Assembly (NCBI GenBank): GCA_007376385.1
Contig: VMGC01000001.1
Coordinates: 288,001-352,000 of the forward strand
DNA length: 64,000 nt
Reading direction: 5' to 3'
From: Parcubacteria group bacterium Gr01-1014_8
Lineage (GTDB): Bacteria > Patescibacteriota > Minisyncoccia > Phycocordibacterales > UBA2100
In this document: piece after piece, positions 3,840-22,396 of the stretch
How the letters are laid out: the number at the start of each line of letters is the position of its first letter
How positions within the stretch are numbered: the first letter of the stretch is position 1
Position numbers and translations under genes: made by a program
Notes under the pieces: generated by a model
Seen by the model: the letters and a program-made list of their open reading frames with translations, nothing else
What the model was told of the DNA's origin: nothing
The model's database searches: none

Positions 3840-3880
3840 TCTTGCATAAATGTCGTGTAATGTAAAAGGAGGCTCGCTAG

Positions 3881-3982
3881 GGGCGAAACAGCGTTCTTCC
3901 GGGTACGTAATTTTTCTGCTGAAAAATTACTCGGGCTTCACGCCGTCGCGTTGCAGAGCCCCTACAGAACGCTGTTTCGCCC
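3881..3982. promoter_or_regulatory. structured divergent-promoter region: perfect 17-bp inverted repeat (GGGCGAAACAGCGTTCT at 3881-3897 / AGAACGCTGTTTCGCCC at 3966-3982) enclosing a nested 9-bp inverted repeat (GTAATTTTT/AAAAATTAC, about 3906-3930)
   Basis: Read directly in the 230-nt gap between divergently oriented rmlA (-) and the methyltransferase gene (+). Confidence 0.4.
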
Positions 3983-4068
3983 TACGCTCGCAGGGGTGGA
4001 GGAGGAGATTTTTTTGTGTGCGACGCGTTGAATGTTCCAACCATCGTATCCCTGTTATACTCGCAACG

Positions 4069-4620
4069 ATGAAATACACGGAGCCCGACATCGATACGGC
4101 GTACCATACGAGTACCATCGGGAAATCGCTCTACGACCAAGTTCTTCTGCATAAACCGAAGAAAATCGTGGAAATAGGCACCCTCCACGGATACACGACT
4201 GCCATTATGGCGATGGCGCTCGATGAGTTAGGCGGGGGGCATATCAATGCATACGATTTATTTGAGGAGTATCCGTACAAGCACCCGACGTATGATGGCA
4301 CGATGGCAAATATCGGGAAGTACGGACTCTCAAAATACGTCACTCTCGCAAAAAAGGGTCTCGACGAATGGCTTGCTGCGCCCGAAGATTTTGATCTCAT
4401 GTATGTAGACGTATCAAATACGGGCGACACGATTGATGCGGTATATGCTGGTGTGAAAGATAAAATTGAAAAAGGTGCCGTTGTGCTTTTTGAGGGCGGT
4501 TCGAATGACCGGGATAAAGTTGAGTGGATATCAAAGTACAATAAGAGGCCCATCGGAGATGCAAAGGCGCCATTCAAAGTTATTGATGAGAATTTTCCTT
4601 CGCTTTCGATGCTAGGATAA
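4069..4620 (+). CDS. class I SAM-dependent (O-)methyltransferase, family-3/CmcI-like
   Basis: Track ORF 3850..4620, trimmed to the internal ATG at 4069 because the upstream part is the hairpin region. KIVEIGTLHGYTTAIMA is the glycine-rich SAM-binding motif I. Confidence 0.5.
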   Translation: MKYTEPDIDTAYHTSTIGKSLYDQVLLHKPKKIVEIGTLHGYTTAIMAMALDELGGGHINAYDLFEEYPYKHPTYDGTMANIGKYGLSKYVTLAKKGLDEWLAAPEDFDLMYVDVSNTGDTIDAVYAGVKDKIEKGAVVLFEGGSNDRDKVEWISKYNKRPIGDAKAPFKVIDENFPSLSMLG

Positions 4621-4626
4621 AACGGT

Positions 4627-5454
4627 ATGACAAAACGGCTTGCGGTAGTTGCTGGCGGATGGCATTTCCCCTTAGGTTTTTATGAAGCGATGTCTCGTCA
4701 GCAAATACCTGAAGGCTGGGAAGTTGAGTTTTTTTGCGTCTCTCATCGCGACCCGAAGCATTCTAAAGAGGAGAAAGAAGAAATCCTAGCAAACCTCGGT
4801 TGGAGTCATCGCGAAGCACTCGACCGGGTTCTCTACAAGGATTTTGCAACTATCGAATCAATGAGCGCGCTTGGGTGGAAGTACAAGGAATATCCGAACA
4901 CGATAGGCGATTGGGGCATGTCGAATCAATGGCTCGGGGAACATGATTACAAAGGGTACGAAATGTTTCTTTTTACGCACGACGATAATTTGATACTTAC
5001 CGATAAAATGCTCGTGGAAGTTTTGCAGGATACAAAAGACTGGCTCGTACTCTCGAACTCAACAGGCAATTCTCAGCGTCGTTTGCGGCAATGGCTAAGG
5101 CTACCGAAGAAATTGCATTTGCGCGGGTCATTCGAATTCTTCAGACACGAGATGCTCGATAAGATGGGAGGGAAATTTGACCTTTCGGAAACGACGCTTA
5201 CGCGCGAGGGTACGGTAGATACGCCGGGAAAATTCACGGCTCTTTCTGATTGGGGAACTACTGTTTTTCCGCTCGAGAAACTTATTGCACGAGAAAATCT
5301 TCAATCACGAATTCATTTTCTTTCGCAGTATTATCGAATGAGTAAATACTGTCTTGAAGGCGAGCGCGGGTTCATTCACAGCACTCACTTCTCAAATACC
5401 GCAGAAGAGGAGAAGGGGCTTAGAAGCATCGCAGCAGGACAAAAAGCCGCATGA
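4627..5454 (+). CDS. hypothetical protein (no recognisable family; possible unrecognised transferase, contains an FTHDDN acidic motif)
   Basis: 275-aa ORF with ATGA 4-nt overlap to the downstream GT4 gene, tightly packed in an operon-like arrangement. Confidence 0.45.
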   Translation: MTKRLAVVAGGWHFPLGFYEAMSRQQIPEGWEVEFFCVSHRDPKHSKEEKEEILANLGWSHREALDRVLYKDFATIESMSALGWKYKEYPNTIGDWGMSNQWLGEHDYKGYEMFLFTHDDNLILTDKMLVEVLQDTKDWLVLSNSTGNSQRRLRQWLRLPKKLHLRGSFEFFRHEMLDKMGGKFDLSETTLTREGTVDTPGKFTALSDWGTTVFPLEKLIARENLQSRIHFLSQYYRMSKYCLEGERGFIHSTHFSNTAEEEKGLRSIAAGQKAA

Positions 5455-6581
5455 ACATTGTATACATCACAAGTGCGCGTATACCGTCAGAACGGGCCTA
5501 TGGCTATGCCATCACCAAACTCTGCGAAGAGTGGGGGAAGGCGGGGCATGATGTGAGGTTGATATTGCCGGAGAGGGAACATGGTCTGCAAGATGACCTG
5601 TTCGAATACTACAAACTCGAGAGGACATTCACCATAGAAAAGATTTCGGCAAGTGACTGGATTGGAAAAAGTCTGTCGACATCGCGCGTTCACTTTGCCC
5701 TCGATCTTCTTGCGTTCGTGATCTCGTTGCGAACAGTACGATTTGATGCGGACACAGCCATCTACACCCGTGAATATCTGCTTGCGCTCACACTTCCGGC
5801 ACGGAATCTTTTTTTGGAAGTGCACACGGTACACAGCAAAGGTTTTTTGTTTCGCCGTGCATTAGGACGGGTGCGCGGGATCGTTGCGATAAGTGAGGGC
5901 GTGAAAAAGGAACTGGTCGCTCTTGGTGTCGCAGAAGAAAAAATTAAGGTTGCTCATGACGGGGTCGATCTGGATCCATTTGCACAGGCTCCGGCGGACA
6001 GAAGCGTCTGGAGGCAGTTTGGTGTCGAGCCGTCACAAAATGTTGTGTTATACGCCGGTCATTTTTACGAGTGGAAAGGAGCCGATACCTTGGCGGTCGC
6101 TGGAAAAATGCTCCCATCTGATGTGCACACGGTCCTAGTAGGAGGTGTAGATAACGAGCTGCGCGACTTTAGAGAGAAATATGCCGCTTCAAATGTGCAC
6201 ATCGCGCCGCATCGATCACGCGCAACGATACCTGTCTTACTGAAAAGCGCGGATGTGCTCGTTCTTCCGAACAGCGCAAAGGCGGAAATCTCGCGCTCAC
6301 ACGCCTCGCCGCTGAAGCTGTTCGAATACATGGCCGCGGGCGTCGCAATTGTTGCGTCCGATGTGCCTAGTCTGCGTGAAGTACTTTCTGAGGATACAGC
6401 TTTTTTCTTTAAGGCCGATGACTCGAATAGTCTCGCGGAGGTTATCGGCCGCGTGCTCAAATTGCCGGACGACGCACATTCCAGAGCTGAACAGGCAAAG
6501 AAAAAGGCGGACACATACACATGGCGTGGTCGCGCTGCCGACATCGCACAATTTCTCGACAGACTGGGGAGCAAGGGATAG
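5451..6581 (+). CDS. glycosyltransferase family 4 (GT-B)
   Basis: 376 aa. C-terminal E-x7-E type motif (ASPLKLFEYMAAGVAIVASDVPSLREVL) typical of GT4/GT1 retaining transferases. Confidence 0.8.
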   Translation: MNIVYITSARIPSERAYGYAITKLCEEWGKAGHDVRLILPEREHGLQDDLFEYYKLERTFTIEKISASDWIGKSLSTSRVHFALDLLAFVISLRTVRFDADTAIYTREYLLALTLPARNLFLEVHTVHSKGFLFRRALGRVRGIVAISEGVKKELVALGVAEEKIKVAHDGVDLDPFAQAPADRSVWRQFGVEPSQNVVLYAGHFYEWKGADTLAVAGKMLPSDVHTVLVGGVDNELRDFREKYAASNVHIAPHRSRATIPVLLKSADVLVLPNSAKAEISRSHASPLKLFEYMAAGVAIVASDVPSLREVLSEDTAFFFKADDSNSLAEVIGRVLKLPDDAHSRAEQAKKKADTYTWRGRAADIAQFLDRLGSKG

Positions 6582-6591
6582 CATAGACTTT

Positions 6592-8403
6592 ATGCGGTTT
6601 TTTAGGCGCCTCGGGAATATGTTCCGCCTGCTTCGGCGGGCATATGGTGCATATTCGACGCAAATAGCGGCGCTTGCTGCCCTGGGCTTTTTGGGCGGAT
6701 TGCTTGAAGGCATCGGCATCAATGCGGTTGTCCCGCTTCTGACATTCATTTTTACGGAGTCCGCGCAGGCGTTTGACCCGATCTCGAATATTCTGCGGTC
6801 AGTGTTCACATTCATCGGCATTGATTTCGCCCCCAAATATTTGCTCGCGTTCATCGTGATCATGTTCCTTGCGCGCGCTGCGGTGATGTACGCGCTCTCG
6901 TATATTCAGACGGTCATATCATTCAACTATGAGCGAGATACGCGAGTACGCGTGTTCGAAACCCTCCTGCGTTCTTCGTGGTCGCATCATCTGGCAAGGA
7001 AATTCGGACATCTGGAGACTATCATCATGATAGACGCTCCGGCGAGCACGAATCTTCTCCGCAAGTTGAGCAATCTCATCACGCTCGCGACGGGGCTCAT
7101 AATGTATCTCATTGTGGCGTTCAATATTTCTCCTGCCGTTACATTTCTGACGTTCGCCGTCGGTGTATGCGGGCTCCTTTTCTTCAGATACTTTTTGACG
7201 ATGATTCACGCGAGAAGTTCGGAGCGTGTCGCGCTCAACAAAGAAGTCGCCCACTACATGGGGGAATACGCGGCGGGCGCGAAGGCGATAAAGGCATCCG
7301 GCACTGAGGAGGTTGTCGCGGAAAGCGGTGTGGATCTTTTTTCCCGTTTAAGGAATATTTCTGTAAGCATATCCCTTGTACAGCAGGTAGCCGTACTCAT
7401 TATTCCGCCGGCCGGGATTCTATATATCGCGCTCATATTCGGTGTTGCGTACCGTACTGATTTCATCCAGCTTGCCGCGCTTCCCGCTATTATTTACCTC
7501 ATTTACCGCATCTCGCTGTACGCTCAGCAAGGGCAGGACCACCTGCAGGGTATTCAGGAACTCGTCCCTCATTTGCAGAGCGTGCTCGCGTTCGAGGAGA
7601 AATCGCGACAGAAAGAAGAGCACATCGGCGGAGATAAATTATTCGCCTTCCACAAGGAACTTCGATTTGACGATGTTCATTTTTCCTACGACGACGGTCG
7701 CGAAGCGCTAAAAGGCGTGTCATTTACTGTTAAGGGGCGCTCAACGGTTGGTATTGTCGGTCCTTCCGGTGCAGGGAAGACGACATCGGTCGATTTGATG
7801 CTGAGGCTCTTGGAGCCGACGAACGGGGCGATCACACTCGATGGTGTAAATGTGCGCGATATTTCACTGCAATCATGGCGCGCAAAAACGGGGTATGTAC
7901 CACAAGAACCGTTCCTGTTGCACGATACGATACGGAACAACGTTCTTTTTCAATTTAAAGGAAACGGAGGACAAGACGCGCTTTCCGATGCAGATGTGTG
8001 GCACTTTCTCAAGATGGCGGATGCGGAAGATTTTGTTCGCGCGATGCCGGAGGGGCTCGATTCAATGGTCGGGGACAGAGGCGTAACACTTTCAGCAGGG
8101 CAGAGACAAAGGCTCGTCATTGCGCGTGAGCTTGCTCGAAAGCCGGAACTCCTCATTCTCGACGAGGCGACGAGCGCGCTCGATAGTGAATCAGAGGCGC
8201 GTTTGCAGAAGGTCATCCAGAAACTCAAGGGTTCGGTTACTATCGTCATTATTGCCCATCGTCTCTCGACTATCTTGGAGTCGGATAAGCTTGTTGTTCT
8301 AAAAGAAGGCACGGTAGCTGAGCCAATAGCCAGCCCTGAAGCGATGCTTCGTACCGCCGGCTCGTATTTAAGCCACATTTTCTCGCTGAATAAATCACTA
8401 TGA
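6592..8403 (+). CDS. ABC exporter, fused permease plus ATPase (MsbA/PglK-like; candidate lipid-linked glycan flippase)
   Basis: Track ORF 6349..8403 overlaps the GT4 gene, so it is trimmed to the ATG at 6592 (MRFFRRLGNMF...). Has an N-terminal 6-TM domain, Walker A GPSGAGKTT, signature LSAGQRQRLVIAREL, and Walker B LLILDEATSALD. Confidence 0.8.
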   Translation: MRFFRRLGNMFRLLRRAYGAYSTQIAALAALGFLGGLLEGIGINAVVPLLTFIFTESAQAFDPISNILRSVFTFIGIDFAPKYLLAFIVIMFLARAAVMYALSYIQTVISFNYERDTRVRVFETLLRSSWSHHLARKFGHLETIIMIDAPASTNLLRKLSNLITLATGLIMYLIVAFNISPAVTFLTFAVGVCGLLFFRYFLTMIHARSSERVALNKEVAHYMGEYAAGAKAIKASGTEEVVAESGVDLFSRLRNISVSISLVQQVAVLIIPPAGILYIALIFGVAYRTDFIQLAALPAIIYLIYRISLYAQQGQDHLQGIQELVPHLQSVLAFEEKSRQKEEHIGGDKLFAFHKELRFDDVHFSYDDGREALKGVSFTVKGRSTVGIVGPSGAGKTTSVDLMLRLLEPTNGAITLDGVNVRDISLQSWRAKTGYVPQEPFLLHDTIRNNVLFQFKGNGGQDALSDADVWHFLKMADAEDFVRAMPEGLDSMVGDRGVTLSAGQRQRLVIARELARKPELLILDEATSALDSESEARLQKVIQKLKGSVTIVIIAHRLSTILESDKLVVLKEGTVAEPIASPEAMLRTAGSYLSHIFSLNKSL

Positions 8404-9128
8404 AAAAGAGGATAGCTATCATTCAGGCGAGAATGAATTCCTCTAGAATGCCCGGGAAAATTCTGAAGGAGATCTCGGGAAAACCGGCGCTGTGGCATCT
8501 CATAGAGAATATCCGACCCTCGAAACAGCTCACCGATATTATCGTCGCGACCACAATGAATACGGCGGATGACGTGATAGCCGATTTTACGAAGGAGAAT
8601 GCTGTCACCTGTTTCCGCGGAAGCGAGGAAAACGTACTAGAGCGATTTTATGAGGCAGCGAAGTCTATCGGTGTCAAGGATTCTGACATCATCGTACGAA
8701 TTACCGCCGATGATATATTCATGGATCCGTATATCATTGATGCGCTCGTCACTTTTTTTGATTCCACGTATCCATACTATAGATTGGTGTCCAATAGCTT
8801 CAAGCCGGGTTTTCCGTATGGTCTTTATTTCGAGCTATTTGATTTCGCTTCTCTGAAAGATGCTTATCGTAATGCGACCACGGAATCCCAAAAAGAGCAT
8901 GTGACGCCGTACATCCGCGAACACGAGGAAACATTTCCTGCTATAGCAATCGAATCAAAAGGAGTCGATCTTTCGGATGTGTATCTTTCGATTGATACAG
9001 TGGAGGACCTCGAGCGAAATCGCCGCATCATCGAGCGGTTGGAGTCGCAGAATAAAAAACATCCGTATCTCTTTACAGATGTAGTCACCGCATATAAGGA
9101 TTTAAAATTGAGCAGGGCATCTGTATGA
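8400..9128 (+). CDS. acylneuraminate cytidylyltransferase-like (CMP-nonulosonic acid synthetase; SpsF/PtmB/PseF family)
   Basis: 242 aa. N-terminus RIAIIQARMNSSRMPGKILKEISGKPALWHLIEN is the CTP_transf_3 signature. Paralogous to the ORF at 17071-17835. Confidence 0.7.
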   Translation: MKKRIAIIQARMNSSRMPGKILKEISGKPALWHLIENIRPSKQLTDIIVATTMNTADDVIADFTKENAVTCFRGSEENVLERFYEAAKSIGVKDSDIIVRITADDIFMDPYIIDALVTFFDSTYPYYRLVSNSFKPGFPYGLYFELFDFASLKDAYRNATTESQKEHVTPYIREHEETFPAIAIESKGVDLSDVYLSIDTVEDLERNRRIIERLESQNKKHPYLFTDVVTAYKDLKLSRASV

Positions 9129-10183
9129 GCCCCATTAAAAATAACTCGCCCAAGCCCTCCGGGCGCGCTAGCGCGGGCGCTATTTCTAACGGGGCGAGAA
9201 TTGGCGTTGTGGGAAACGGTTCGATGGGGAGGCGGAGAATAAAACATTCTCAGATGTATGGATATACAGACATCACGGGTTGGGATATTAGGTCGGACAG
9301 GCGAAAGGAGGTCGAATCAAAGTTCGGAATACAAACGGTGAAGAGTCAGAAGGATTTTGAGAACTCAAAGTTCGATGCGCTATTCATTTGTGTGCCTCCG
9401 GCCGAACACTATTACTACATGAAGCTTGCGGTGAAGAACGGTTGGAATTTTATGGTGGAGAATCCAGTGTGGCATAAGGTGAAGGGACTCGATGTGCTTC
9501 AAAGGGAAGTGAAGAAGAAAAAACTGGTGGCGAACGTCAGTTGCAACGTCAGGTTCCTGAAAGCGACGCAGAGGATAAAGCAGCTTGTTCGAGATGATGT
9601 CATTGGACCGATATTGTCGGGCGTAGCCGAAGTCGGCGAATATTTGCCTGATTGGCATCCGTACGAACCGTATACCGATTACTATCCGTCCAAAAAAGAA
9701 ATGGGCGGCGGTATCGACGCGATGTGTGATCTCGACTGGCTTGTCGATATTTTCGGCGATATCCGCAGGATGAACTGTGTGTATTCGAAAAAGTCGAGCC
9801 TAAAAATCAATACCTATGACATCATTGATTTCATTCTAGAGTTCAAGTTAGGACCGCAGATAGTTCTGCATACCGACATGCTTCAATCGCCGTACGGCAG
9901 AGCGGTGAAGCTCATAAGTGAGCGCGGTGTTATCGTGTGGGAATACAAAGAACAGATAGTAAAATATTATGATCGTCGAACCAAGAAGTGGACAAAGTTC
10001 GACGAATCGGGTTCGAGAGTTAATTTCGACAATAACATCACGACGACATGGGCTGAGCAGATGTATATGGACGATTCATTTCACTTCTTCAAGTGTCTGA
10101 AAGGCGAGGCGAAGCCGCTTAACACTATAGAAAGCAATTCGAAACTTCTGAAACAGCTTCTCAAAGCCATCGACTACGCCTGA
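9125..10183 (+). CDS. Gfo/Idh/MocA-family NAD(P)-dependent oxidoreductase (PtmF-like)
   Basis: 352 aa. N-terminal Rossmann segment ARIGVVGNGSMG and ...DALFICVPPAEHYYYMKLAVKNGWNFMVENP pattern of the Gfo/Idh/MocA fold. Confidence 0.6.
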   Translation: MSPIKNNSPKPSGRASAGAISNGARIGVVGNGSMGRRRIKHSQMYGYTDITGWDIRSDRRKEVESKFGIQTVKSQKDFENSKFDALFICVPPAEHYYYMKLAVKNGWNFMVENPVWHKVKGLDVLQREVKKKKLVANVSCNVRFLKATQRIKQLVRDDVIGPILSGVAEVGEYLPDWHPYEPYTDYYPSKKEMGGGIDAMCDLDWLVDIFGDIRRMNCVYSKKSSLKINTYDIIDFILEFKLGPQIVLHTDMLQSPYGRAVKLISERGVIVWEYKEQIVKYYDRRTKKWTKFDESGSRVNFDNNITTTWAEQMYMDDSFHFFKCLKGEAKPLNTIESNSKLLKQLLKAIDYA

Positions 10184-10184
10184 T

Positions 10185-11606
10185 ATGAGGATACTTGTCG
10201 TATATCCGAGGGCAGTGCCGGAGATAGAGATATTTTTTAATGACCTCAAACAAGCGGGGCACGAAATCGTCTATTGGGTCGGGGAACATAGCGGAGAGAA
10301 GAACACCCCTAAAGGCGCGATATTTCACGATCACTATGATGCGTGGGACGGCAAATCGGCTGAAGTATTCAAGAACGTCACATTCCCGCCCGCTTCTTCA
10401 GAGTTGGTAGAAAGATTGTACCGTACAGAGTCAGTTGTGCTTTCTATGATGGATAAGCATTACGATTCGGCGCCCGTGAATGAGCGAAAGCATATCTATT
10501 ATTCGATGTTGTCCTACTGGTCGGGAGTGTTGGATATGCTCAAGCCCGATGCGGTCGTCTTCGCTATAGTTCCTCACACGGTATACAACTACATTCTTTA
10601 TGAGCTCGCGCGTCTGCGCGGCCTTTTTACGCCGTGCTTTGAAGATACGTATGTTGCGTCACGCCTTTTATTTTATAAGAATTTCTGGGAAGGAAGTGAG
10701 GAACTACGTGATGCGCTCGGGCGTGCGTCCGATGCGAAGCTATCCGACTTGTCCGGAGATTTAGCGGCATATTTGAAACGATTTAAAGAGACCGAGGCAC
10801 AGCCGGCGTATATGGCCCAGCAAAAAAGACTGGGCGCGGGTTGGGGGCTCTTTCGCCACAGAGTCAGGATAGCGCGCGCTGGTCTGCTTTCCGGGAGGAC
10901 GTTCGTACTCGCGTGGAGATTTTTCAAGCGGTTGTTTGTCAGAAATCTTGCACACGAATATAGAGGAGTCGTGTCTGCGCCGGACATGTCACGGCCATAT
11001 GTATATTTTCCTCTCAATATGCAGCCCGAGCGCTCAACCTCGCCGCAGGGCGGTGTTTTTCAGGATCAGATCCTCGTTGCGGAAACAGTTGCCGCATCGT
11101 TGCCTGATGGCTGGATGCTTGTGATAAAAGAACATCCTTCGCAGTGGTGGTTGCGTGGGAAAACGCGTTACTCGAGCGCACGCTACCGCGGCTATTATCA
11201 GCGTCTTGCGCGTATACCGAACACGGTTCTCGTAGATACATTCACCAACACGTTCGAGTTGACGCGCGGTGCGCGGGCTGTCGCCGTCGTAACCGGAACT
11301 CCGGGGTGGGAAGCGATTCTGCGCAGTATTCCCGTGATCGTGTTCGGATACCCGTGGTATCGGGATTGCCCCGGAACTCTGCGAGTAGAAAATGTGGATG
11401 AGTGCAGGGTAGCGCTTGCGAGAATCGAGTCCGGGGGTCTAAAGCTGACTACTGACGGCGTGATTGCTTTTTTGAAAGCGCTTGACGCTGTGTCAGTACG
11501 TGCTTTTATTCACGATCTGATCGGGCAGACCGAACATATGAGTGAAGCGGAATCCTTTCGAAATATTGCTCTGAAGCTGAACACAGAACTCCGCGCGAAT
11601 ACATAA
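10185..11606 (+). CDS. putative capsule-synthesis (KpsC/KpsS/LpsZ, PF05159-like) CMP-ulosonic-acid glycosyltransferase; paralog of 25971-27467
   Basis: 473 aa. C-terminal motif AVAVVTGTPGWEAILRSIPVIVFGYPWY is shared with the paralog (VTVISGTPGWEAALLKKPVITFGHVFY). It resembles the G(F/W)EAL...KPV..G...Y motif of Kdo-transferase-like capsule synthesis proteins, but family assignment is from memory only. Confidence 0.4.
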   Translation: MRILVVYPRAVPEIEIFFNDLKQAGHEIVYWVGEHSGEKNTPKGAIFHDHYDAWDGKSAEVFKNVTFPPASSELVERLYRTESVVLSMMDKHYDSAPVNERKHIYYSMLSYWSGVLDMLKPDAVVFAIVPHTVYNYILYELARLRGLFTPCFEDTYVASRLLFYKNFWEGSEELRDALGRASDAKLSDLSGDLAAYLKRFKETEAQPAYMAQQKRLGAGWGLFRHRVRIARAGLLSGRTFVLAWRFFKRLFVRNLAHEYRGVVSAPDMSRPYVYFPLNMQPERSTSPQGGVFQDQILVAETVAASLPDGWMLVIKEHPSQWWLRGKTRYSSARYRGYYQRLARIPNTVLVDTFTNTFELTRGARAVAVVTGTPGWEAILRSIPVIVFGYPWYRDCPGTLRVENVDECRVALARIESGGLKLTTDGVIAFLKALDAVSVRAFIHDLIGQTEHMSEAESFRNIALKLNTELRANT

Positions 11607-11608
11607 CT

Positions 11609-12589
11609 ATGCGGGCATCATCGAACAAACAATCAGCTGCGTTGGAAAAAGCAGCTCTTTCCAAAAAGAAGGCGAGACGATCGCCTGACAAGAAGGACAG
11701 GGAGATAGCGGAAGAAATTCTGCGAATTCACTCAAAACTCAAGAAGGTTTTTATGGCCGACGGCGAGTGGAAGTGGATCAATGAGAACAAAAAAAAGAAT
11801 TATATAAAAGCGTTGCGCGATAACAATCCGGATGCTCTCGCGGCGATACTCGCAAATCTTTTTCAGGAAGACGCTTCCTACGGATTTTACACATACGAGA
11901 CAGATTCATTACAGGCGGGTATACGTGCCGACCTTGCCGTATGGAACGAATTCGTGGAGCAGAATGACATATCCCCGCTCTCGATGCCTGATGTGGGGAA
12001 TCCGCACGGTATTGTGGTCGGGGGAGTGCTCGTTGCGCCTTTCCAGCCGCGCCATGATTATTGCGCTCAGAAGATACATTCTCTCGGTCCGAAAACCGTT
12101 CTCGAAATAGGAGGCGGATACGGCGGGCTGGCGCTTCAATTGTCACGACGTTCGAATGTTAAATATATAGACTGCGATTTGCCGGAAACTCTGTATGTCG
12201 CGTACTACTTTCTCAAAAAAGCGGGATTAAACGTGAAATGGGCCATAGATACATGGCCGGATGCCCCGATTGTTCTTGTTCCTGCGAATCGAAAGAAGTT
12301 AATTCAAAAGGCAGATCTGGTGTTTAACGGCCTTTCCTTTTCCGAGATGGGAAGAGAAACGGTCGACGGGTATTTCAAATTCATAAACAACGTATGGAAG
12401 CCCCGATATATTTTTCATCAGAACAGCAACATCCTTCTTTTTCCCAATTCACCGCGGCATATCGAAGTTCTCGCGAGGGATTTTCCCATAGGTAAAATCT
12501 ATCGCGAGATCTATCGTGCAATTTCTCCATGGCAGGGAGGCAGTGGCAGGTATCGTGAGTATCTCTACGAGAGGAATCTCGAACGTTGA
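11609..12589 (+). CDS. class I SAM-dependent methyltransferase (putative sugar O-methyltransferase)
   Basis: 326 aa. VLEIGGGYGGLALQL is the SAM motif I. Lies within the nonulosonic acid module. Confidence 0.55.
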   Translation: MRASSNKQSAALEKAALSKKKARRSPDKKDREIAEEILRIHSKLKKVFMADGEWKWINENKKKNYIKALRDNNPDALAAILANLFQEDASYGFYTYETDSLQAGIRADLAVWNEFVEQNDISPLSMPDVGNPHGIVVGGVLVAPFQPRHDYCAQKIHSLGPKTVLEIGGGYGGLALQLSRRSNVKYIDCDLPETLYVAYYFLKKAGLNVKWAIDTWPDAPIVLVPANRKKLIQKADLVFNGLSFSEMGRETVDGYFKFINNVWKPRYIFHQNSNILLFPNSPRHIEVLARDFPIGKIYREIYRAISPWQGGSGRYREYLYERNLER

Positions 12590-12858: not shown

Positions 12859-13632
12859 ATGTATCGTAAGAATTCGTATGCACTTACAGAGAGCGTAGCG
12901 TTCATTACAGGTGCTCTCGGCCAGATCGGACGGGAGATAGTCATGCGATTCTTGGAAGACGGCGCGTTTGTCTATATCGCCGACAAAGGGAAAAAGATCA
13001 GTGACGATCTCGCAAAAAAACTGAAGCGCGCGAAATTTGATAACTACCGGTACGTCACGATTGACGTGACGAGCGAGGAGTCGATACGAGCCGTGTATAG
13101 GAAACTGACGCGTCCCGTTGATGTACTTGTCAATTGTGCCGGCATTGGCGTATATACGTCGTTTGAGTCGCGAACTTCCGACGAACTCGATACCGTGTAC
13201 GCGGTAAACCTTAAGGGCACTATCCTGTGCTCCAAGATATTTTCAGCAGGCATGATGAAGAGGAAAGGGGGTCGGATCATCAATATCGGTTCTATATACG
13301 GGATTACAACGCCGGATTTTTCAATGTACGGCGATTCCGGTAGGAATTCTTCTGAGATCTACGGCGCGACGAAAGCCGGCATTATCCAGACGACGAAATA
13401 TCTTGCGGCATACCTTGCGCCGCACAATATTCTGGTGAACTGCGTAAGTCCAGGCGGCGTCTTTAATCGCCAGAAATCCTTTTTCGTCAGACGATATAAA
13501 AAGAGGACGCCGCTTCAGCGAATGGCGGCGCCAGACGATCTTACGGGTGTTATCGCGTTTCTCGCTTCGGATGAGGCGGCGTATATCACGGGACAGAATA
13601 TCGCGGTCGACGGAGGCTTTACGATATGGTGA
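12859..13632 (+). CDS. short-chain dehydrogenase/reductase (SDR; PtmA/FabG-like)
   Basis: 257 aa. TGALGQIGREI Rossmann motif, NCAGIG, and the catalytic YGATKAGI (Y-x3-K). Confidence 0.8.
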   Translation: MYRKNSYALTESVAFITGALGQIGREIVMRFLEDGAFVYIADKGKKISDDLAKKLKRAKFDNYRYVTIDVTSEESIRAVYRKLTRPVDVLVNCAGIGVYTSFESRTSDELDTVYAVNLKGTILCSKIFSAGMMKRKGGRIINIGSIYGITTPDFSMYGDSGRNSSEIYGATKAGIIQTTKYLAAYLAPHNILVNCVSPGGVFNRQKSFFVRRYKKRTPLQRMAAPDDLTGVIAFLASDEAAYITGQNIAVDGGFTIW

Positions 13633-16028
13633 AGAAAGCCCGTAAAAAAGTATATGTGCTTGGAGCGGGAATGAGCGGGCTTGCGACCGCACTTCGGCTT
13701 GCAGAGCTCGGCGTCGATACAACCCTCGTTGAAAAAGAAAAGAAGGTCGGCGGACTCGCGGGAAGTTTCAAATGGCGCGATTTCAAGAATCTTGATTACG
13801 GACCGCATATCTACCACACACCCGACAAGAAACTGGAAGAGATATGGAAGAAGGAGTACGGCGATCTGTTCCATCAAAATGAGTTCTGGGGAAAGAACGT
13901 TAAAGGTGAGAAGTTCGACCGGTATTTTGACTACCCACTGTCATTCGAATCACTAAAAAAATTTCCTTCTGACGTGAGAAAAAAGATCATGCATGAACTG
14001 TCTCATCTCGACGAGACAAAGCTCGCAAAGGCGAAAAGTTATGCCGATTACGTACGGGAACTCGTCGGTCCCACGCTGATGGAGTATTTTTTTATCCGTT
14101 ACCCTCAAAAATTATGGGGGGTTTCCATAGATAAGATGACGGCAAACTGGGCCCCCAAGCGTGTTACATTCAGGACGAAAGACGAACATTTTCATGCAGG
14201 TCAATGGAGCGCGGTCGGGAAATACGGGTCAGGCAGGATACTGGAGAGAATGGCCGATAGATTCAAAAAAAAAGGTGGCACACTTATGCTCGGGAGTCCC
14301 GTCATGGCGATCGAGCACTCAAACGGCATCATCAAGAACATCGTACTTGACGAAAAGAAAATCAGACTTTCGTCCGACGATGCGGTTGTTTCGACGATAC
14401 CGATACCTGTCATGGCCGAGTATCTTGGCGTTAGAAATACCTTGAAATATCGTGGAGCGAAAATTGTATTTGTCGCGCTCAACAAGGAAGAGGCAATCCC
14501 CGACAAGTTCAATTTTCTTTACTACGATGCACCGGAAATAATTTTTCATCGGGTGAGTGAGCAGAAGAAATTCTGCGCGCTTGGGTTTCCAAAGAACAAA
14601 ACTGTGCTTTCGTGTGAGATCGCATACACAAAAGGGGACACGCTGGATACAACCGACGAGAAAGAGATACTGGATCGAGCTGTGAGCAGTCTCATACGTG
14701 TCGGGCTCGCCAAAAAAAATGAGGTTGAGGATGCGATGATGGTCTCCCTTCCGTACGTGTACCCTCTCTTGGTTCGCGGAAGCGAACACGAACTCGTTGA
14801 TGTGCGCGGACGTCTCGGCGCATTCAAGCAGCTCTATTGCATCGGCACCGGGGGCGATTTCCGGTACGATGACCTGCAGATACTCAATTTACGAGGGTTT
14901 GATCTCGCTGAGCGGCTTGCGTCACCTGAACTGGACGAAGATGCGGGAGAAGCTGTCAAAAAAGATTTTACGACCGGCTTTAACAACACGTTCGCGCTCG
15001 GCCGCCATACAGTTTCTGAATCCGCGCCCGCGTTCATCATTGCCGAGATCGGGCTCAACCATAACGGGAGCATGAAGCTCGCTATGGAGCTTATCGATAG
15101 GGCGGTTGAGTGCGGTTGTTCGGCCGTGAAGTTTCAGACGTACAGCGCGGGGAACAGAGTGTCGAAGGAAGTGAAGGGCAATCGATACGCCGAGAAGCTT
15201 GTAGATATGGAAGAAACAACATTCGATATGCTCAAGCGTCTGGAATTCACTACGAAAGATCACGTGCGCCTGTTTGCGTACGCCAAGCAAAAAGGAATCG
15301 AGATCTTTTCAACACCGTTCGACTTTGAAAGCGTCGATCTTCTGGAATCCCTCGGGTGCGACTTCTATAAGATTTCGTCGATGGATCTTGTGAATCTGCC
15401 GTTGATACAAAAAGTCGCAAGGACAGGGAAGCCGATGATCGTTTCGACGGGAATGTCAACGCTCGGTCAGGTCGAGGATGCCGTCAATACCATCCGGGAA
15501 ACCGGCAATAAAAATCTTGTCCTCCTGCACTGCGTCTCAATGTATCCCGCGGCGGCACAGGACGTAAACATGGCAGTTATGGGAACTCTACGGCGGGCAT
15601 TCGGAACGCCAGTCGGTTTTTCCGATCACACTATCGGTCTTTCGGCCGCGACTGTTGCGCTCGCACTCGGCGCACGTGTCATCGAACGGCACTTTACTCT
15701 CGATAGATTTATGGAGGGGCCCGATCACATTCTGTCGTCTGACCCGGATGAAATGAGAGAGCTTGTGCGTCTCAGTCATCTTATTCCCGTCATCATGGGA
15801 AAGCCAGAGAAAGTAATTCTTCCGAGCGAAACGGAAACCGTCAATAGGTTCAAGAAATGTCTGTACGCACGGAAAGACATACGTCGGGGCCAGAAAATAA
15901 CAATGGATGCGCTTGCCATAAAGGGTCCGGGAGGAGGGATATTGCCGAAATATGCCAACGTTATTGTCGGGAGGACGGCTCGAAACAGTATCAAGAGGGA
16001 TCACCCCATCCAGTGGGGCGATGTATGA
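13626..16028 (+). CDS. fusion protein: N-terminal FAD-dependent oxidoreductase (UDP-galactopyranose-mutase/amine-oxidase-like) plus C-terminal NeuB-family nonulosonic-acid synthase with SAF domain
   Basis: 800 aa. N-terminus VYVLGAGMSGLATALRLAELGVDTTLVEKEKKVGGLAGSF dinucleotide-binding motif and DYGPHIYHT (compare Glf KYGAHIFHT). From about aa 455, PAFIIAEIGLNHNGSMKLAMELIDRAVECGCSAVKFQTY plus a C-terminal SAF-like tail form the NeuB/PseI/LegI signature. Confidence 0.7.
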   Translation: MVKKARKKVYVLGAGMSGLATALRLAELGVDTTLVEKEKKVGGLAGSFKWRDFKNLDYGPHIYHTPDKKLEEIWKKEYGDLFHQNEFWGKNVKGEKFDRYFDYPLSFESLKKFPSDVRKKIMHELSHLDETKLAKAKSYADYVRELVGPTLMEYFFIRYPQKLWGVSIDKMTANWAPKRVTFRTKDEHFHAGQWSAVGKYGSGRILERMADRFKKKGGTLMLGSPVMAIEHSNGIIKNIVLDEKKIRLSSDDAVVSTIPIPVMAEYLGVRNTLKYRGAKIVFVALNKEEAIPDKFNFLYYDAPEIIFHRVSEQKKFCALGFPKNKTVLSCEIAYTKGDTLDTTDEKEILDRAVSSLIRVGLAKKNEVEDAMMVSLPYVYPLLVRGSEHELVDVRGRLGAFKQLYCIGTGGDFRYDDLQILNLRGFDLAERLASPELDEDAGEAVKKDFTTGFNNTFALGRHTVSESAPAFIIAEIGLNHNGSMKLAMELIDRAVECGCSAVKFQTYSAGNRVSKEVKGNRYAEKLVDMEETTFDMLKRLEFTTKDHVRLFAYAKQKGIEIFSTPFDFESVDLLESLGCDFYKISSMDLVNLPLIQKVARTGKPMIVSTGMSTLGQVEDAVNTIRETGNKNLVLLHCVSMYPAAAQDVNMAVMGTLRRAFGTPVGFSDHTIGLSAATVALALGARVIERHFTLDRFMEGPDHILSSDPDEMRELVRLSHLIPVIMGKPEKVILPSETETVNRFKKCLYARKDIRRGQKITMDALAIKGPGGGILPKYANVIVGRTARNSIKRDHPIQWGDV

Positions 16029-17065
16029 AGAGTCCCGTCATAGAGAATATTTTACGAAAGATACGCGCCGGTTCCAAACGCCGCGCGACAGGCTTTGTCA
16101 TCGGAAACACCTCCGGAGTTTTCAAACAAGGCCGATTGTATCCGATTCCTATCCGGGAGACGGGTACACTCATTTACGGCGGTGTGATCGTTCGTGATGT
16201 CGCTACCGCCGGAGCTGTCGCGCGCATGATAGACGGCAAGACGGACTACGTATTTGTTGATGCGGAAAAGAAGATCGAGACAATGTATCATGGTAAAAAC
16301 GATGTCGGCAACATCGAGCGGATGGTTCGCGGCGTCATATTGAAATCGAAGATAATTACCTACAAAGGCAACGACCTGACAAAAGACGCAATCGACTTTC
16401 TTCTCGGTCAGCTTATCGTTGATATTGGCGGAACGACTGTCGCCGTGATCGGATGCGGGAATCTCGGTGCAAAAATAGCGCTTAAATTGGTGGAGCGAGG
16501 AGCTCATGTCCGTGCGTACCGGAGGGACAAAGGGAAGCTGCGGAAAATTGTGACGGGTCTCAATCAGATAAAATCAGAACACACGCTTTCGTCCATCTGG
16601 GCGGCGCGGAGTATAGCGGATGCGTGTAAAGGTGCGAGCGCAGTTATCGCAACAGCAGACAGCCAGGGCATTATCAAACACGATCATTTGAAATTCATGA
16701 ATATCGCCCGCCCGCCCATCCTGATCGATGCGGGAAAAGGCTGTTTTTCGGATGATGTAGTGAGAAGTGATGCATACGCCATATACCGTGCCGATGTGTC
16801 CATCGCGCAAAAGCATATTTTTTCGGCGCTTCTTGAGACGAAATTACACTATGGGCGATCGATAGGACGGCGCGTGCTCGAGGATGGCAATGTGGGCCTC
16901 GTGTCGCTCGGGCTCCTTGGAAAAAAAGGGGAGGTCATCGTGGATGATATTGATTCCCCGCGGCGCATTATCGGTGTCGCTGACGGGAGGGGCAAGTTGA
17001 TGAAGAATGTCGGGAGTCAGAAGAAAGTTGTTGAGAAAATACGGCGCATGTTTAATGCATCATAA
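16025..17065 (+). CDS. NAD(P)-binding Rossmann-fold protein (putative dehydrogenase; family unclear)
   Basis: Track ORF 15857..17065 trimmed to the ATG at 16025 (ATGA overlap with the upstream stop). Contains a TVAVIGCGNLGAKIALKL dinucleotide-binding motif. Confidence 0.4.
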   Translation: MKSPVIENILRKIRAGSKRRATGFVIGNTSGVFKQGRLYPIPIRETGTLIYGGVIVRDVATAGAVARMIDGKTDYVFVDAEKKIETMYHGKNDVGNIERMVRGVILKSKIITYKGNDLTKDAIDFLLGQLIVDIGGTTVAVIGCGNLGAKIALKLVERGAHVRAYRRDKGKLRKIVTGLNQIKSEHTLSSIWAARSIADACKGASAVIATADSQGIIKHDHLKFMNIARPPILIDAGKGCFSDDVVRSDAYAIYRADVSIAQKHIFSALLETKLHYGRSIGRRVLEDGNVGLVSLGLLGKKGEVIVDDIDSPRRIIGVADGRGKLMKNVGSQKKVVEKIRRMFNAS

Positions 17066-17070
17066 TTTCT

Positions 17071-17835
17071 ATGTCTCGGCACCCTCGCGTTATCGCAATC
17101 ATTCAGGCACGCATGTCCTCAACACGCATGCCGGGCAAAGTGCTGCTTGACCTTTTACCCGGCGTATCAGTCGTGGAATACATGCTTCGGCGTGTTTCAG
17201 CAAGTACAGAAGTCGATACGAGCATTGTTGCGACCACTGATAATCCAAGGGATGCCGTGCTGGTCGAGAACATGAAGGCGATAGGGCAGTCTTTCTTTGT
17301 AGGCAGTGAAGGGGATGTGCTAGACCGATACTACAATGCAGCAAAAAAATACGGAGCCAAGGCAGGAGACATGATAGTGCGCTTAACCTCTGATTGTCCA
17401 GTCATCGATCCCAAAGAAATCGATGCGACGGTCAGATTTTATCGTCAACATGATTTTGACTACGCCTCAAACAATCTTGAGCCATACTCATTCCCTGACG
17501 GCATGGATACTGAAGTATTTTCTTTCGAGGCCCTGGAAAAGGCGTGGAACGATGCGACCAGTCAGTCGCATCGCGAGCACGTCACTTTTTATTTCTGGAA
17601 AAATCCGCAGATCTTCAAGATAGGACAGTATGTGAATCCCAAACGAAATCAGGACGAGTATCGGCTTACACTCGATTACCCATCTGACTACGTGTTACTG
17701 AAAAAAGTTGCGGAATATTTCTCGCCGCGCATGGATTACTCCATGCAGGAAATCATTGATTTTCTGGATTCTCATCTTGACGTGAAGGCTCTGAATGCGG
17801 ATGTTGCGCGCAATGTGCACTTCAAGACGGCATGA
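17071..17835 (+). CDS. acylneuraminate cytidylyltransferase-like (candidate CMP-pseudaminic acid synthetase, PseF-like)
   Basis: 254 aa. VIAIIQARMSSTRMPGKVLLDL... is paralogous to 8400-9128. Lies upstream of the pseB/pseC/pseI-like genes. Confidence 0.65.
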   Translation: MSRHPRVIAIIQARMSSTRMPGKVLLDLLPGVSVVEYMLRRVSASTEVDTSIVATTDNPRDAVLVENMKAIGQSFFVGSEGDVLDRYYNAAKKYGAKAGDMIVRLTSDCPVIDPKEIDATVRFYRQHDFDYASNNLEPYSFPDGMDTEVFSFEALEKAWNDATSQSHREHVTFYFWKNPQIFKIGQYVNPKRNQDEYRLTLDYPSDYVLLKKVAEYFSPRMDYSMQEIIDFLDSHLDVKALNADVARNVHFKTA

Positions 17836-17874
17836 CGCGACGAACAAGAAAGTTGGTGATATGCTCGGATAATT

Positions 17875-19221
17875 ATGACGATGAAAAAGACTCCGGCTGA
17901 CAGATTGCAGGGGAAGGGGCAGAAGCTCTGGAAGAAGGCCAAGACGCTCATACCTGGCGGGAACCAACTTCTTTCCAAGCGGGCGGAGATGTTTCTGCCG
18001 GATAACTGGCCCGCGTACTATTCGAAAGCGAGCGGTCCGTACGTTTGGGATCTCGATGGCCGCCGGTACATGGATGTCGGCAGTATGGCCGTCGGTAGCT
18101 GCCTTCTCGGCTATGCTGACAAAGATGTGAATAAGGCAGTGAAAGAAGCAGTTGATCGCGGTTCGATGTCCACTCTGAACGCACCCGAAGAAGTTGAGCT
18201 GGCGGAACTGCTCTGCAAGATCCATCCGTGGGCGGACATGGTGCGCTACGCGAGAGGGGGAGGCGAGAGCATGGCAATAGCTGAGCGTATCGCGCGCGCT
18301 TACACAGGACGCGACATTATTCTGTTCTGCGGATATCACGGCTGGTCGGACTGGTATCTGGCCGCGAATCTCTCATCGGATAAGGCGCTCGACGGGCACT
18401 TATTGCCGGGACTCGAGCCACGCGGCGTTCCGCGGGGGCTTGCGGGCACAATAGTACCGTTCCACTATAACAACATTGATGAGCTCGAAGCTCTTGCAAA
18501 GAAATACGGAAAGAAAGTAGCCGCAATCGTTATGGAGCCCGTGCGCAGCGAACCGCCGGAAAATAATTTTCTAAAGAAAGTGCGAAGGATGGCCGACAGG
18601 CTCGGTGCCGTTCTTGTATTCGACGAGATATCCATCGGGTGGAAACTGACATACGGAGGGGCGCATCTCCTGTATGGAGTCAACCCCGACATTGCGGTAT
18701 TCAGCAAGGCGATGAGTAATGGTTTTCCTATGGCGGCAGTGATTGGCCGAAGGGAAGTGATGCAGGCGGCGCAAAGCTCGTTCATCTCAAGTACCTATTG
18801 GACCGACAGAACAGGCCCAAGTGCGGCGCTCGCGACGCTGAAGAAAATGAAACGAGTAAATGTCACACAGCATATCAGCCGCATAGCGCGTATCACGCGT
18901 GCCGGGTGGGTGCGCCTGGCAAAGAAGCACGGACTTTCTATCGCCATCGGGTGGTCCCTGCCGTACAGTTCGTTCACGTTTACTGACCAGAAAGATACTC
19001 TTGCCCTCAAGACGCTTTTTAATCAGGAGATGCTGCGGCGTGGTTTTCTCGCTACAACGGCGTTCACTCCGTCAGCGACACATACACCGCAACACATTCG
19101 GCAGTATCTAAAAGCGGTGGACGAAGTTTTCGGCATACTTGCGGACGCGCTCAAAAAGGGGGACGTGAAGAAGCGTCTCCAAGGCCCTCCGGTCCATTCG
19201 CATTTTCAGCGTCTGAACTGA
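17875..19221 (+). CDS. class-III PLP aminotransferase (glutamate-1-semialdehyde aminomutase-like)
   Basis: 448 aa. HGWSDWYLAANL..., VFDEISIGWKLTYGG and AVFSKAMSNGFPMAAVIG (PLP-Lys region) resemble HemL-like class III transaminases. The context is glycan biosynthesis, not haem. Confidence 0.65.
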   Translation: MTMKKTPADRLQGKGQKLWKKAKTLIPGGNQLLSKRAEMFLPDNWPAYYSKASGPYVWDLDGRRYMDVGSMAVGSCLLGYADKDVNKAVKEAVDRGSMSTLNAPEEVELAELLCKIHPWADMVRYARGGGESMAIAERIARAYTGRDIILFCGYHGWSDWYLAANLSSDKALDGHLLPGLEPRGVPRGLAGTIVPFHYNNIDELEALAKKYGKKVAAIVMEPVRSEPPENNFLKKVRRMADRLGAVLVFDEISIGWKLTYGGAHLLYGVNPDIAVFSKAMSNGFPMAAVIGRREVMQAAQSSFISSTYWTDRTGPSAALATLKKMKRVNVTQHISRIARITRAGWVRLAKKHGLSIAIGWSLPYSSFTFTDQKDTLALKTLFNQEMLRRGFLATTAFTPSATHTPQHIRQYLKAVDEVFGILADALKKGDVKKRLQGPPVHSHFQRLN

Positions 19222-19303
19222 TAGCGTGCGTTGTTTTTTCGGTGTCGACTCCCAACTTGTTTTCGTTGACCCGCCGGCGAAGAGGCGTTACAGTGGGGCG
19301 CTC

Positions 19304-22391: not shown

Positions 22392-22396
22392 GTGAG

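Follow-up and report, generated by a model that had tools for sequence, protein, structure and literature searches.

Two KpsS1-like putative nonulosonic acid transferases in a Parcubacteria glycan locus

The window analyzed here (64,000 nucleotides in its entirety) belongs to a Parcubacteria (CPR) genome and carries a glycan locus of ~40 kb that encodes two NeuB synthases and two CMP-sugar synthetases together with an MsbA/PglK-like ABC exporter (Table 1). It includes two paralogous genes, A and B, whose products are exact matches, with the same lengths, to G01um10148_300 and _314 of Parcubacteria group bacterium Gr01-1014_8. The frame of B can be extended to a TTG at 25944, but in the homolog alignment the related proteins begin with MKGCF... 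at the ATG. Both open reading frames described in the initial annotation, and both C-terminal motifs quoted there, were found. Calling these motifs near-identical was an overstatement, however, since only 15 of 25 residues counted from the two translations are the same, although this is the best-conserved block of the pair. Judged from their sequences, the similarity of A and B is far beyond chance: BLASTP found 40% identical residues in an alignment of 126 aa (E=1e-25), and a comparison of the two family profiles extends over their full length (458 columns, 22% identity, E=2.4e-43). The N-terminal domains are strongly diverged. No third family member was found in the six frames of the window, and Rfam returned nothing there.

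Table 1. Features of the glycan locus, in window coordinates
Feature	Position	Strand	Basis and remarks
Fused TMD-NBD ABC exporter, MsbA/PglK/HepA-like	6592-8403	+	Pfam ABC_membrane + ABC_tran; ATG 6592 start inferred
CMP-sugar synthetase 1 (CTP_transf_3)	8400-9128	+	Pfam PF02348 117.8 bits; NCBIfam KdsB/PseF matches sub-threshold only
GFO/IDH/MocA oxidoreductase, directly 5' of A	9125-10183	+	Pfam PF01408
Paralog A, PF05159/KpsS1-like putative CMP-nonulosonic acid transferase	10185-11606	+	473 aa, soluble, ATG start
NanM-like putative sugar O-methyltransferase, end of operon 1	11609-12589	+	NCBIfam TIGR04371 75 bits, cut-off 44
FAD amine-oxidase/UDP-Galp-mutase-like domain fused to NeuB/LegI-type nonulosonic acid synthase	13626-16028	+	800 aa; Pfam NeuB 301 bits, Amino_oxidase, GLF
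CMP-sugar synthetase 2 (CTP_transf_3)	17071-17835	+	Pfam PF02348 97.3 bits
Pseudaminic-acid-type biosynthesis block	19226-24641	+	PseB-like, DegT/PseC-like, aldo-keto reductase (Pfam AKR), GNAT, 239-aa protein, PseI
PseB-like	from 19226	+	PseB 396 vs cut-off 408
DegT/PseC-like	from 20167, start uncertain	+	Pfam DegT
GNAT	from 22370	+	Pfam GNAT
PseI (NeuB)	23592-24641	+	PseI equivalog 475 bits, cut-off 340
441-aa soluble protein between PseI and B	24638-25963	+	No TM segment; 'TRPHPRD' motif
Paralog B, PF05159/KpsS1-like putative CMP-nonulosonic acid transferase	25971-27467	+	498 aa from ATG
Wzy_C (O-antigen ligase/O-oligosaccharyltransferase-type) membrane protein with TPR repeats	42395-44614	+	Wzy_C 68 bits, cut-off 31.7; TPR

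The genes are tightly packed into two operons, with only 2 bp between A and the putative O-methyltransferase gene. In operon 1, A accompanies the ABC exporter and one CMP-sugar synthetase, and in operon 2, B accompanies both NeuB genes. The proposal of one transferase per NeuB module therefore holds for the existence of two NeuB and two CTP_transf_3 genes but not for their arrangement, as A's operon contains no NeuB. The best NCBIfam matches of the exporter (HepA, MsbA, and PglK) are all below their cut-offs; it is the probable flippase/exporter of the glycan. The Wzy_C protein, with many TM segments, is a candidate for the enzyme of the final transfer step. For the fused synthase, NCBIfam gave 375 bits to NeuB_NnaB (cut-off 399.65) and 303 to PseI. 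Neither nonulosonic acid pathway is demonstrably complete, since no PseG or NeuC/LegG-type gene was recognized in the window. The 441-aa protein upstream of B had no Pfam, NCBIfam, or PDB match (best PDB sequence match, E=0.23), and a PDB sequence search with the 239-aa protein returned none. A CTP_transf_3 and GFO pair like that preceding A also adjoins a B homolog in another locus (L001).

Both proteins belong to the KpsC/KpsS/LpsZ family, as the initial annotation had suspected. In the HMMER check against PF05159 (Capsule_synth, gathering score 20 bits), A scored 34.5 and B 31.2 bits, with matches spanning just profile positions ~141/169-267 of 310. By sequence, no solved protein in the PDB other than KpsC is significantly related (single-sequence E values of 3e-5 to 9e-3; with the B-family profile, 1.4e-10 to 4.2e-8), and the similarity is confined to 75-118 C-terminal residues. 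The overall fold of A and B resembles the solved KpsC modules, and their solved structural neighbors are all Kdo transferases; a Foldseek search of the PDB with A gave generic GT-B matches alone (TM 0.22-0.31), to which we attach no weight. The likeness to KpsC stands only in part, given a single module instead of two, a Glu in place of the QxxxD Asp, and bit scores against KpsS1-type proteins that exceed those against KpsC two- to threefold. In hmmsearch, the B profile scored 245 bits with a homolog from Mariluticola, 142 with one from a Klebsiella plasmid, 117 with A, 102 with KpsS1, and 35-44 with KpsC; the A profile scored 139 and 92 with the same two homologs, 105 with B, 70 with KpsS1, and 19-40 with KpsC. 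The KpsS1 reference was a 480-aa protein of an A. baumannii chromosome (L165:13161-14603) in a KL2-type K locus (gna-psaA..F-wzx-[gene]), which we infer to be KpsS1 from this locus type and from Y131-E132, as described for that enzyme (PMC12887879). In hhalign, its alignment spans 288 columns of the B profile (E=2.6e-23) and 312 of the A profile (E=4.9e-21). On these comparisons, A and B sit in the branch of the KpsC/KpsS superfamily that contains A. baumannii KpsS1 (GT118), much nearer to KpsS1 than to KpsC. Classical bacterial sialyltransferases (GT38/42/52/80) were rejected as relatives, with no specific sequence or fold similarity. Membership in NCBIfam NF046086 (BFO_1060 family glycosyltransferase, cut-off 200 bits) was also rejected, as the match is too weak: B scored 27.3 and KpsS1 24.1 bits, and A had no match at E<=0.01.

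According to PMC12887879, which cites Walklett 2024, KpsS1 is a KpsC/KpsS homolog experimentally shown to be a retaining Pse5Ac7Ac transferase, and it founds GT118. For Tannerella forsythia, genetic work of 2017 demonstrated related transferases for Pse and Leg (PMC5420450). Consequently, nonulosonic acid transfer, presented initially as a distinct activity for this fold, was already known. A and B themselves most likely add nine-carbon, sialic-acid-like sugars to a surface glycan, judging from sequence and context, and would represent an enzyme type known since the 2024 work on Acinetobacter. To our knowledge, KpsS1 is the only enzyme characterized biochemically as a nonulosonic acid transferase for this fold, and in bacterial sialic-acid-like glycosylation such transferases are the step about which least is known.

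The x-P-E segment reads FPLNMQPERSTS in A, FPLQYEPETTLL in B, YPIHFHPESSTS in KpsS1, and VPGQVESDASI in KpsC-C, and its Glu (E282 in A, E317 in B) aligns with the KpsC-C nucleophile D165 (PMC10148158). QxxxD is the invariant Kdo-transferase motif that carries the nucleophile Asp (PMC10148158, PMC12887879); at this site A reads N278-M-Q-P-E282 and B Q313-Y-E-P-E317, both without the Asp of GT107, and the Gln is not conserved either (N278 in A, His in the B-family consensus). [quoted passage not shown] Thus, of the KpsC catalytic residues with which an alignment had been suggested, the CMP-binding His and Glu match but the QxxxD Asp does not. Three residues, the Glu of x-P-E, the His of HP, and the Glu of GWE, do not vary across 44 + 46 homologs. 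In the N-terminal domain, KpsC has its general base at Glu66 (KpsC-N) or Glu70 (KpsC-C). In the family and profile alignments, E82 of A and E68 of B are >=90% conserved and aligned to each other. The general base proposed for KpsS1, Glu132 of a YE motif, corresponds to Ala127 in A and Tyr in B, in a column that is variable in both families.

In raw counts, relatives of A and B elsewhere co-localize with NeuB or CMP-sugar synthetase genes, a co-occurrence that the initial annotation had proposed to look for. Among loci with full flanks, NeuB lies within 10 kb in 28 of 40 of the B family, and NeuB or CTP_transf_3 within the same distance in 31/40 (B family) and 16/20 (A family); about 30-45% of related loci with full flanks have no NeuB within this distance. 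A-family genes lie nearly always directly 3' of an MsbA/PglK-like exporter: a homolog of the ABC exporter occurs in 63 of 80 A-family loci and in all 20 of those with full flanks, and in 45 loci (e.g., L004) it ends <400 bp upstream of the A-family gene on the same strand. Some B-family loci carry a Wzx flippase in place of the ABC exporter. Outside CPR, homologs directly follow annotated pseB-C-F-G-I operons on plasmids of Mariluticola and Klebsiella. The NeuB adjacent to single-copy relatives is of mixed type (B family, four of five NeuB_NnaB-type and one PseI; A family, two of five NeuB_NnaB and three ambiguous). We therefore assign neither Leg nor Pse to A or B, since the sugar cannot be read from the subfamily.

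KpsS1-like enzymes of two deep subfamilies are shown here to be common in CPR/Patescibacteria. A B-type relative is encoded in at least 246 species genomes and an A-type relative in at least 538 metagenome stretches, all annotated as hypothetical. In public data, the A-family profile retrieved 2,916 clusters (50% identity) at E<=1e-30, a taxonomically unsorted count in which proteobacterial homologs and B also score above the threshold; the cluster names of the distant representatives were uninformative. Within the literature collection searched, no paper linked CPR with nonulosonic acids.

Taken together, A and B are probably KpsS1-like single-module transferases that add the CMP-activated nonulosonic acids of the locus to a growing glycan. 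Each would be a cytoplasmic, GT-B-like enzyme using a CMP-activated nine-carbon nonulosonic acid made by the locus, one donor being a pseudaminic-acid-type sugar from the PseB/PseC/GNAT/PseI block and the other coming from the NeuB/LegI-type synthase. The glycan would probably be built on a lipid-linked acceptor at the cytoplasmic face, carried over the membrane by the MsbA/PglK-like exporter, and then handed on by the Wzy_C-type enzyme. A double-displacement reaction with net retention is suggested by analogy with KpsC, WbbB, and KrkA and by the retaining outcome of KpsS1, and the diverged N-terminal domains may set sugar and acceptor specificity.

Transfer by single displacement, with inversion and with the x-P-E Glu serving in binding or as a base, is unlikely. 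In its favor, most HP-motif CMP-sialic-acid transferases are inverting (PMC10148158), the mechanism of KpsS1 is described as still unclear (PMC12887879), and the Gln of QxxxD is not conserved. Against it stand the net retention reported for KpsS1 (PMC12887879) and the exact alignment of an invariant Glu with the proven KpsC-C nucleophile. Somewhat less likely still is a role as nonulosonic acid polymerases or chain-terminating cappers of an ABC-transporter-dependent pathway instead of single-residue adders. KpsC extends poly-Kdo and WbbB caps O-antigen for export (PMC10148158, PMC12887879), so the nearest solved relatives have such roles, and the recurrent fused exporter beside A-family genes fits them. 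That exporter, however, is a type-I MsbA/PglK-like fused protein and not a Wzm/Wzt or KpsMT ABC-2 system, the Wzx flippase of some B-family loci replaces it, and a Wzy_C protein is also present in the window. Moreover, KpsS1 adds one Pse per repeat unit.

That A and/or B are β-Kdo transferases like KpsC/KpsS/WbbB, adding the 8-carbon Kdo from CMP-Kdo, is improbable. The solved structural neighbors favor this reading, as do the top NCBIfam matches of both CTP_transf_3 proteins, which are KdsB models far under cut-off; yet a Glu takes the place of the absolutely conserved QxxxD Asp, as it does in KpsS1, a Pse transferase, the bit scores place A and B closer to KpsS1-type proteins, the non-CPR homologs come after pse operons, and the ORFs of the window that were scanned include two NeuB genes but no KdsA-type gene (DAHP_synth_1, Kdo-8-P synthase). 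A TagF/TagB-like CDP-glycerol/ribitol phosphotransferase, the identity that the initial annotation itself had set against its proposal, can be practically dismissed, as neither a Glyphos_transf domain nor the closest fold match indicated a glycerophosphotransferase.

If transfer of nonulosonic acids by A and B is confirmed, these enzymes would give a handle on CPR surface glycans, and their natural sequence variation (the Glu nucleophile and the absence of the YE base) would be useful for studying the GT118 mechanism. A broader and rather doubtful extension is that the x-P-E Glu is the hallmark and covalent nucleophile of a large nonulosonic-acid-specific branch within the retaining ulosonic acid transferases, that the CPR A subfamily is obligately paired with the MsbA/PglK-like exporter, and that a CPR-wide pathway displays one or two sialic-acid-like sugars on the cell surface. 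If true, these sugars might decorate pili, the S-layer, or giant surface proteins and be a possible determinant of host attachment, and these episymbionts would gain their first defined glycan pathway.

Among known systems, KpsS1 (GT118) is similar in length (480 aa), in its PF05159 domain, and over ~290-310 alignable columns that include part of the N-terminal domain; it shares with A and B the x-P-E-S/T-T-S motif (Glu at the nucleophile position) and the G-(W/Y)-E-A-L-L-x-K-P-V block, and it is also encoded beside nonulosonic acid biosynthesis genes. Nevertheless, identity is only 27-34%, with BLAST covering the C-terminal domain alone, no alignment is possible over the first ~110-130 residues, Glu132 (its proposed base) is missing from A and B, and KDHK replaces their full KxHP. 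Its context consists of Wzx/Wzy capsule genes, whereas that in CPR has an ABC exporter. KpsC (GT107), WbbB (GT99), and KrkA (GT140) are retaining β-Kdo transferases with an invariant QxxxD, unlike A and B; KpsC has two tandem GT modules and a kps context (KpsMT, KdsA/B), in contrast to the single module, type-I fused exporter, and lack of Kdo pathway genes among the ORFs scanned here.

The T. forsythia enzymes (Tanf_01245/TFUB4_00887/BFO_1060; NF046086) are soluble ~445-aa transferases of Pse and Leg derivatives, encoded just 3' of CMP-NulO loci with a methyltransferase alone intervening in one strain (PMC5420450). Their C-terminal domain is conserved and has an HP motif, and their N-terminal domain is divergent and dictates Pse versus Leg (PMC5420450). 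This layout is also that of the A/B pair, although the T. forsythia family model matches B weakly and A not at all. The homologs from Klebsiella pneumoniae (NZ_CP055164) and Mariluticola halotolerans (NZ_CP090961) are proteobacterial and annotated as hypothetical protein. The latter is homologous to B over its full length (27.6% over 450 aa, E=8e-45) and has the motifs FPLHLQPEGST and KEHP; its gene follows an ABC transporter-pseB-pseC-pseF-pseG-NeuB array.

The two ORFs, A and B, were recovered as outlined in the initial annotation, each matching exactly a gene deposited on a 407,897-bp contig of Parcubacteria group bacterium Gr01-1014_8, which places the window in a candidate-phyla-radiation (CPR; Patescibacteria) genome. 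An upstream TTG at 25944 could lengthen the frame of B; its homologs start at ATG. The C-terminal motif said to be near-identical is present in both proteins, although identity, counted from the two translations, is 15 of 25 positions. BLASTP aligned residues 267-392 of A with 302-418 of B (40% identity, E=1e-25), and profiles of the A family (44 homologs) and the B family (46 homologs) aligned across 458 columns at 22% identity (E=2.4e-43), indicating that A and B are paralogous along their whole length and that their N-terminal domains have diverged strongly. No third A/B-like gene was found by hmmsearch with both profiles among all six-frame ORFs of the window, and no membrane segment was predicted in the catalytic part of either protein. 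The proposed check against PF05159 placed both above the gathering score, the match being confined to the C-terminal part of the Pfam model. Among proteins of solved structure, only the modules of KpsC, a retaining beta-Kdo transferase (GT107), were significantly similar in sequence, with E values of 3e-5 to 9e-3 for single sequences and 1.4e-10 to 4.2e-8 (over 75-118 residues) for the B-family profile. The AlphaFold2 models reached confident pLDDT values of 91.7 (A) and 90.2 (B), and Foldseek matched the A model only to generic GT-B folds with low TM-scores. Thus, the family assignment of A comes mainly from sequence profiles.

A tblastn search of a plasmid collection with B yielded three informative relatives. 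In Mariluticola halotolerans (463 aa; L166, 10040-11431), the plasmid gene follows an ABC transporter, pseB, pseC, pseF, a PIG-L deacetylase, pseG, a NeuB-family gene, three further genes, and, as its immediate upstream neighbour, a methyltransferase, while the Klebsiella pneumoniae plasmid gene (465 aa; L167, 8269-9666) lies downstream of pseB-C-F-G-I. PGAP names both of these genes, which follow complete pse operons, only "hypothetical protein," and NCBIfam holds no model naming their KpsS1-like family. The third is a 480-aa ORF from one of two A. baumannii chromosomes (3.7-4.1 Mb; NZ_CP077849.1 [L165] and NZ_CP104448.1) filed as "plasmids" in the collection, and it stands in a KL2-type K locus after wzc, wzb, wza, gna, psaA-F, and wzx. 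Its Y131-E132 exactly matches the YE motif (Glu132) described for KpsS1 (PMC12887879), and the ORF is treated here as KpsS1 itself or a very close allele. Its alignments to the family profiles span 288 columns for B (E=2.6e-23) and 312 for A (E=4.9e-21). Like-for-like bit scores place A, B, and KpsS1 about equidistant in one branch, well apart from KpsC. KpsS1, B, and the Mariluticola and Klebsiella proteins also gave similarly weak matches to the NCBIfam model of the Tannerella forsythia Pse/Leg transferases (19-27 bits; cut-off, 200).

Bit scores of relatives in like-for-like hmmsearch
Protein	B-family profile	A-family profile
Mariluticola	245	139
Klebsiella plasmid	142	92
Other paralog	117 (A)	105 (B)
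KpsS1	102	70
KpsC	35-44	19-40

Retaining Kdo transferases (GT99/107/140) are defined by three elements: an absolutely conserved QxxxD, with the Asp as covalent nucleophile and the Gln as carboxylate ligand; a CMP-phosphate-binding (K/R)xHP; and, in the N-terminal domain, a Glu acting as general base (PMC10148158; PMC12887879). In the profile alignment to KpsC-C, the B-family "ffpLhyEPE" lies over "VVPGQVESD165," which puts an invariant Glu (E282 in A, E317 in B) at the nucleophile position, whereas the Gln is not conserved in either family. The x-P-E also occurs in KpsS1 (H-F-H-P-E303), Mariluticola (LQPE), and Klebsiella (YHPE). The KxHP (A 315-318, B 350-353) and the Glu of GWE (A E376, B E402) are invariant in the 44 A-type and 46 B-type homologs. 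The base proposed for KpsS1, Glu132, is conserved in neither A nor B, where E82 and E68, respectively, are candidate general bases picked out by conservation alone.

Both genes belong to a glycan locus that extends from the window start to ~44 kb. Intergenic gaps in operon 1 are at most 10 bp, and 269 bp separate it from operon 2. The idea of one transferase per NeuB module holds only approximately: synthases, CMP-activating enzymes, and candidate transferases each number two, but their genes do not fall into two distinct modules. Both CMP-sugar synthetases score far under every NCBIfam equivalog cut-off. Despite the two NeuB synthases, neither PseG (UDP-sugar hydrolase) nor NeuC/LegG (hydrolysing 2-epimerase) was recognised in 1-44614. 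The 441-aa protein encoded between PseI and B, which carries a (K/R)xHP-like "TRPHPRD," matched nothing in Pfam, NCBIfam, or PDB; it may represent a divergent enzyme of the GT-B type, for example, one performing the missing PseG/NeuC-like step. In the FAD-NeuB fusion, an FAD amine-oxidase/UDP-galactopyranose-mutase-like domain (residues ~5-420) precedes a NeuB/LegI-type synthase (~470-800), and metagenome locus L091 encodes a comparable fusion of 807 aa. Among the best 80 of at least 538 A-family loci, just 2 have homologs of the 441-aa ORF and 3 of the FAD domain. The Wzy_C membrane protein that ends the locus is a candidate for en-bloc glycan transfer to protein or another acceptor. Further downstream, a stop-free frame without a Pfam match, which may encode a giant CPR surface protein, occupies a higher-GC stretch (0.55 versus ~0.49) with reversed GC skew, and its N-terminus resembles a nearby HTH_17 ORF.

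Genes and other features of the window, in order
Place	Feature	Coordinates	Strand	Remarks
Operon 1		3850-12589
1	Methyltransferase
2	No recognised function
3	GT4 glycosyltransferase
4	Fused MsbA/PglK/HepA-like ABC exporter	6592 (probable start)
5	CTP_transf_3 CMP-sugar synthetase
6	GFO/IDH/MocA oxidoreductase
7	A	10185-11606	+	473 aa; G01um10148_300, "hypothetical protein"
8 (last)	NanM-like sugar O-methyltransferase
Operon 2		12859-28464
1	SDR
2	FAD-domain-NeuB fusion	13626-16028	+	800 aa; NeuB_NnaB 375 bits, just below cut-off
3	NAD-binding protein
4	Second CTP_transf_3
5	Class-III aminotransferase
6	PseB-like dehydratase			396 bits, cut-off 408
7	DegT aminotransferase
8	Aldo-keto reductase
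9	GNAT
10	No recognised function			239 aa
11	PseI			475 bits, cut-off 340
12	441-aa protein	24638-25963	+	Soluble
13	B	25971-27467	+	498 aa; G01um10148_314, "hypothetical protein"
14 (last)	Epimerase
Further locus genes (both strands)		28.4-44.6 kb
	DegT, epimerase, GT4, UDP-glucose-dehydrogenase-like gene		-
After these	GT2 glycosyltransferases, PMT_2 GT-C enzyme, AsnB-like amidotransferase, methyltransferases
Locus end	Wzy_C (O-antigen ligase/O-oligosaccharyltransferase-type) membrane protein	42395-44614	+	739 aa; C-terminal TPR repeats
Downstream	HTH_17 ORF	51321-52274
Downstream	Stop-free frame	52592-64000	+	At least 3,802 codons; extends past window end

A Pse-type donor would be the simplest guess for B, given PseI two genes upstream, the position of the non-CPR relatives after pse operons, and the transfer of Pse by KpsS1. 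Where CPR loci have one NeuB and one transferase, the synthase is of the NeuB_NnaB/LegI type in 4/5 B-type and 2/5 A-type loci (3 ambiguous). T. forsythia transferases sharing 81% identity tell Pse and Leg apart via their N-terminal parts (PMC5420450), so membership of the A or B subfamily is not necessarily a guide to the donor.

When one genome per species was scanned, B-type relatives turned up in at least 246 genomes, the best 80 all being Patescibacteria MAGs. Many such records (L005-L084) are titled "uncultured Gammaproteobacteria" or "Saccharibacteria"; as their loci resemble named Parcubacteria/Magasanikbacteria MAGs, these automated taxon labels look unreliable. With full 10-kb flanks, 28/40 B-family loci contain a NeuB homolog and 31/40 NeuB or CTP_transf_3; the A-family figures are 11/20 and 16/20. 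Since 20 kb makes up just a few percent of the genome in CPR bacteria, this co-localisation would represent a large enrichment. Metagenomes yielded at least 538 A-type relatives. Among the best 80, a homolog of the fused exporter is present in 63 (20/20 with full flanks); in 45 of those 63 (e.g., L004), it shares the strand of the A-type gene and ends no more than 400 bp before it, and a PseB-like dehydratase lies downstream in 52 of the 80 (median distance, 158 bp). At E<=1e-3, the A-family profile matched representatives of 10,107 clusters (50% identity), and at E<=1e-30 those of 2,916, counts that cover clusters of any taxonomy; B and proteobacterial homologs also score above both thresholds. 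A- and B-type genes occur together on the same contigs repeatedly in Kaiserbacteria.

These results imply the production of nonulosonic-acid glycans by many CPR bacteria, a subject with no entry in the literature searched. The initial reading was partly right: its guess at the family and its functional idea were sound, but this fold was already known to have the activity. KpsS1 is a demonstrated retaining pseudaminyltransferase and the founder of GT118 (PMC12887879), and the related T. forsythia transferases were demonstrated genetically (PMC5420450). The novelty is modest and comprises, besides the implication for CPR glycans, two deep, abundant, and unannotated CPR subfamilies of the KpsS1 branch, an almost obligate link between the A subfamily and an MsbA/PglK-like exporter, and a Glu-for-Asp switch common to A, B, and KpsS1, whose YE base is not common to them. 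A and B thereby join an already known enzyme type.
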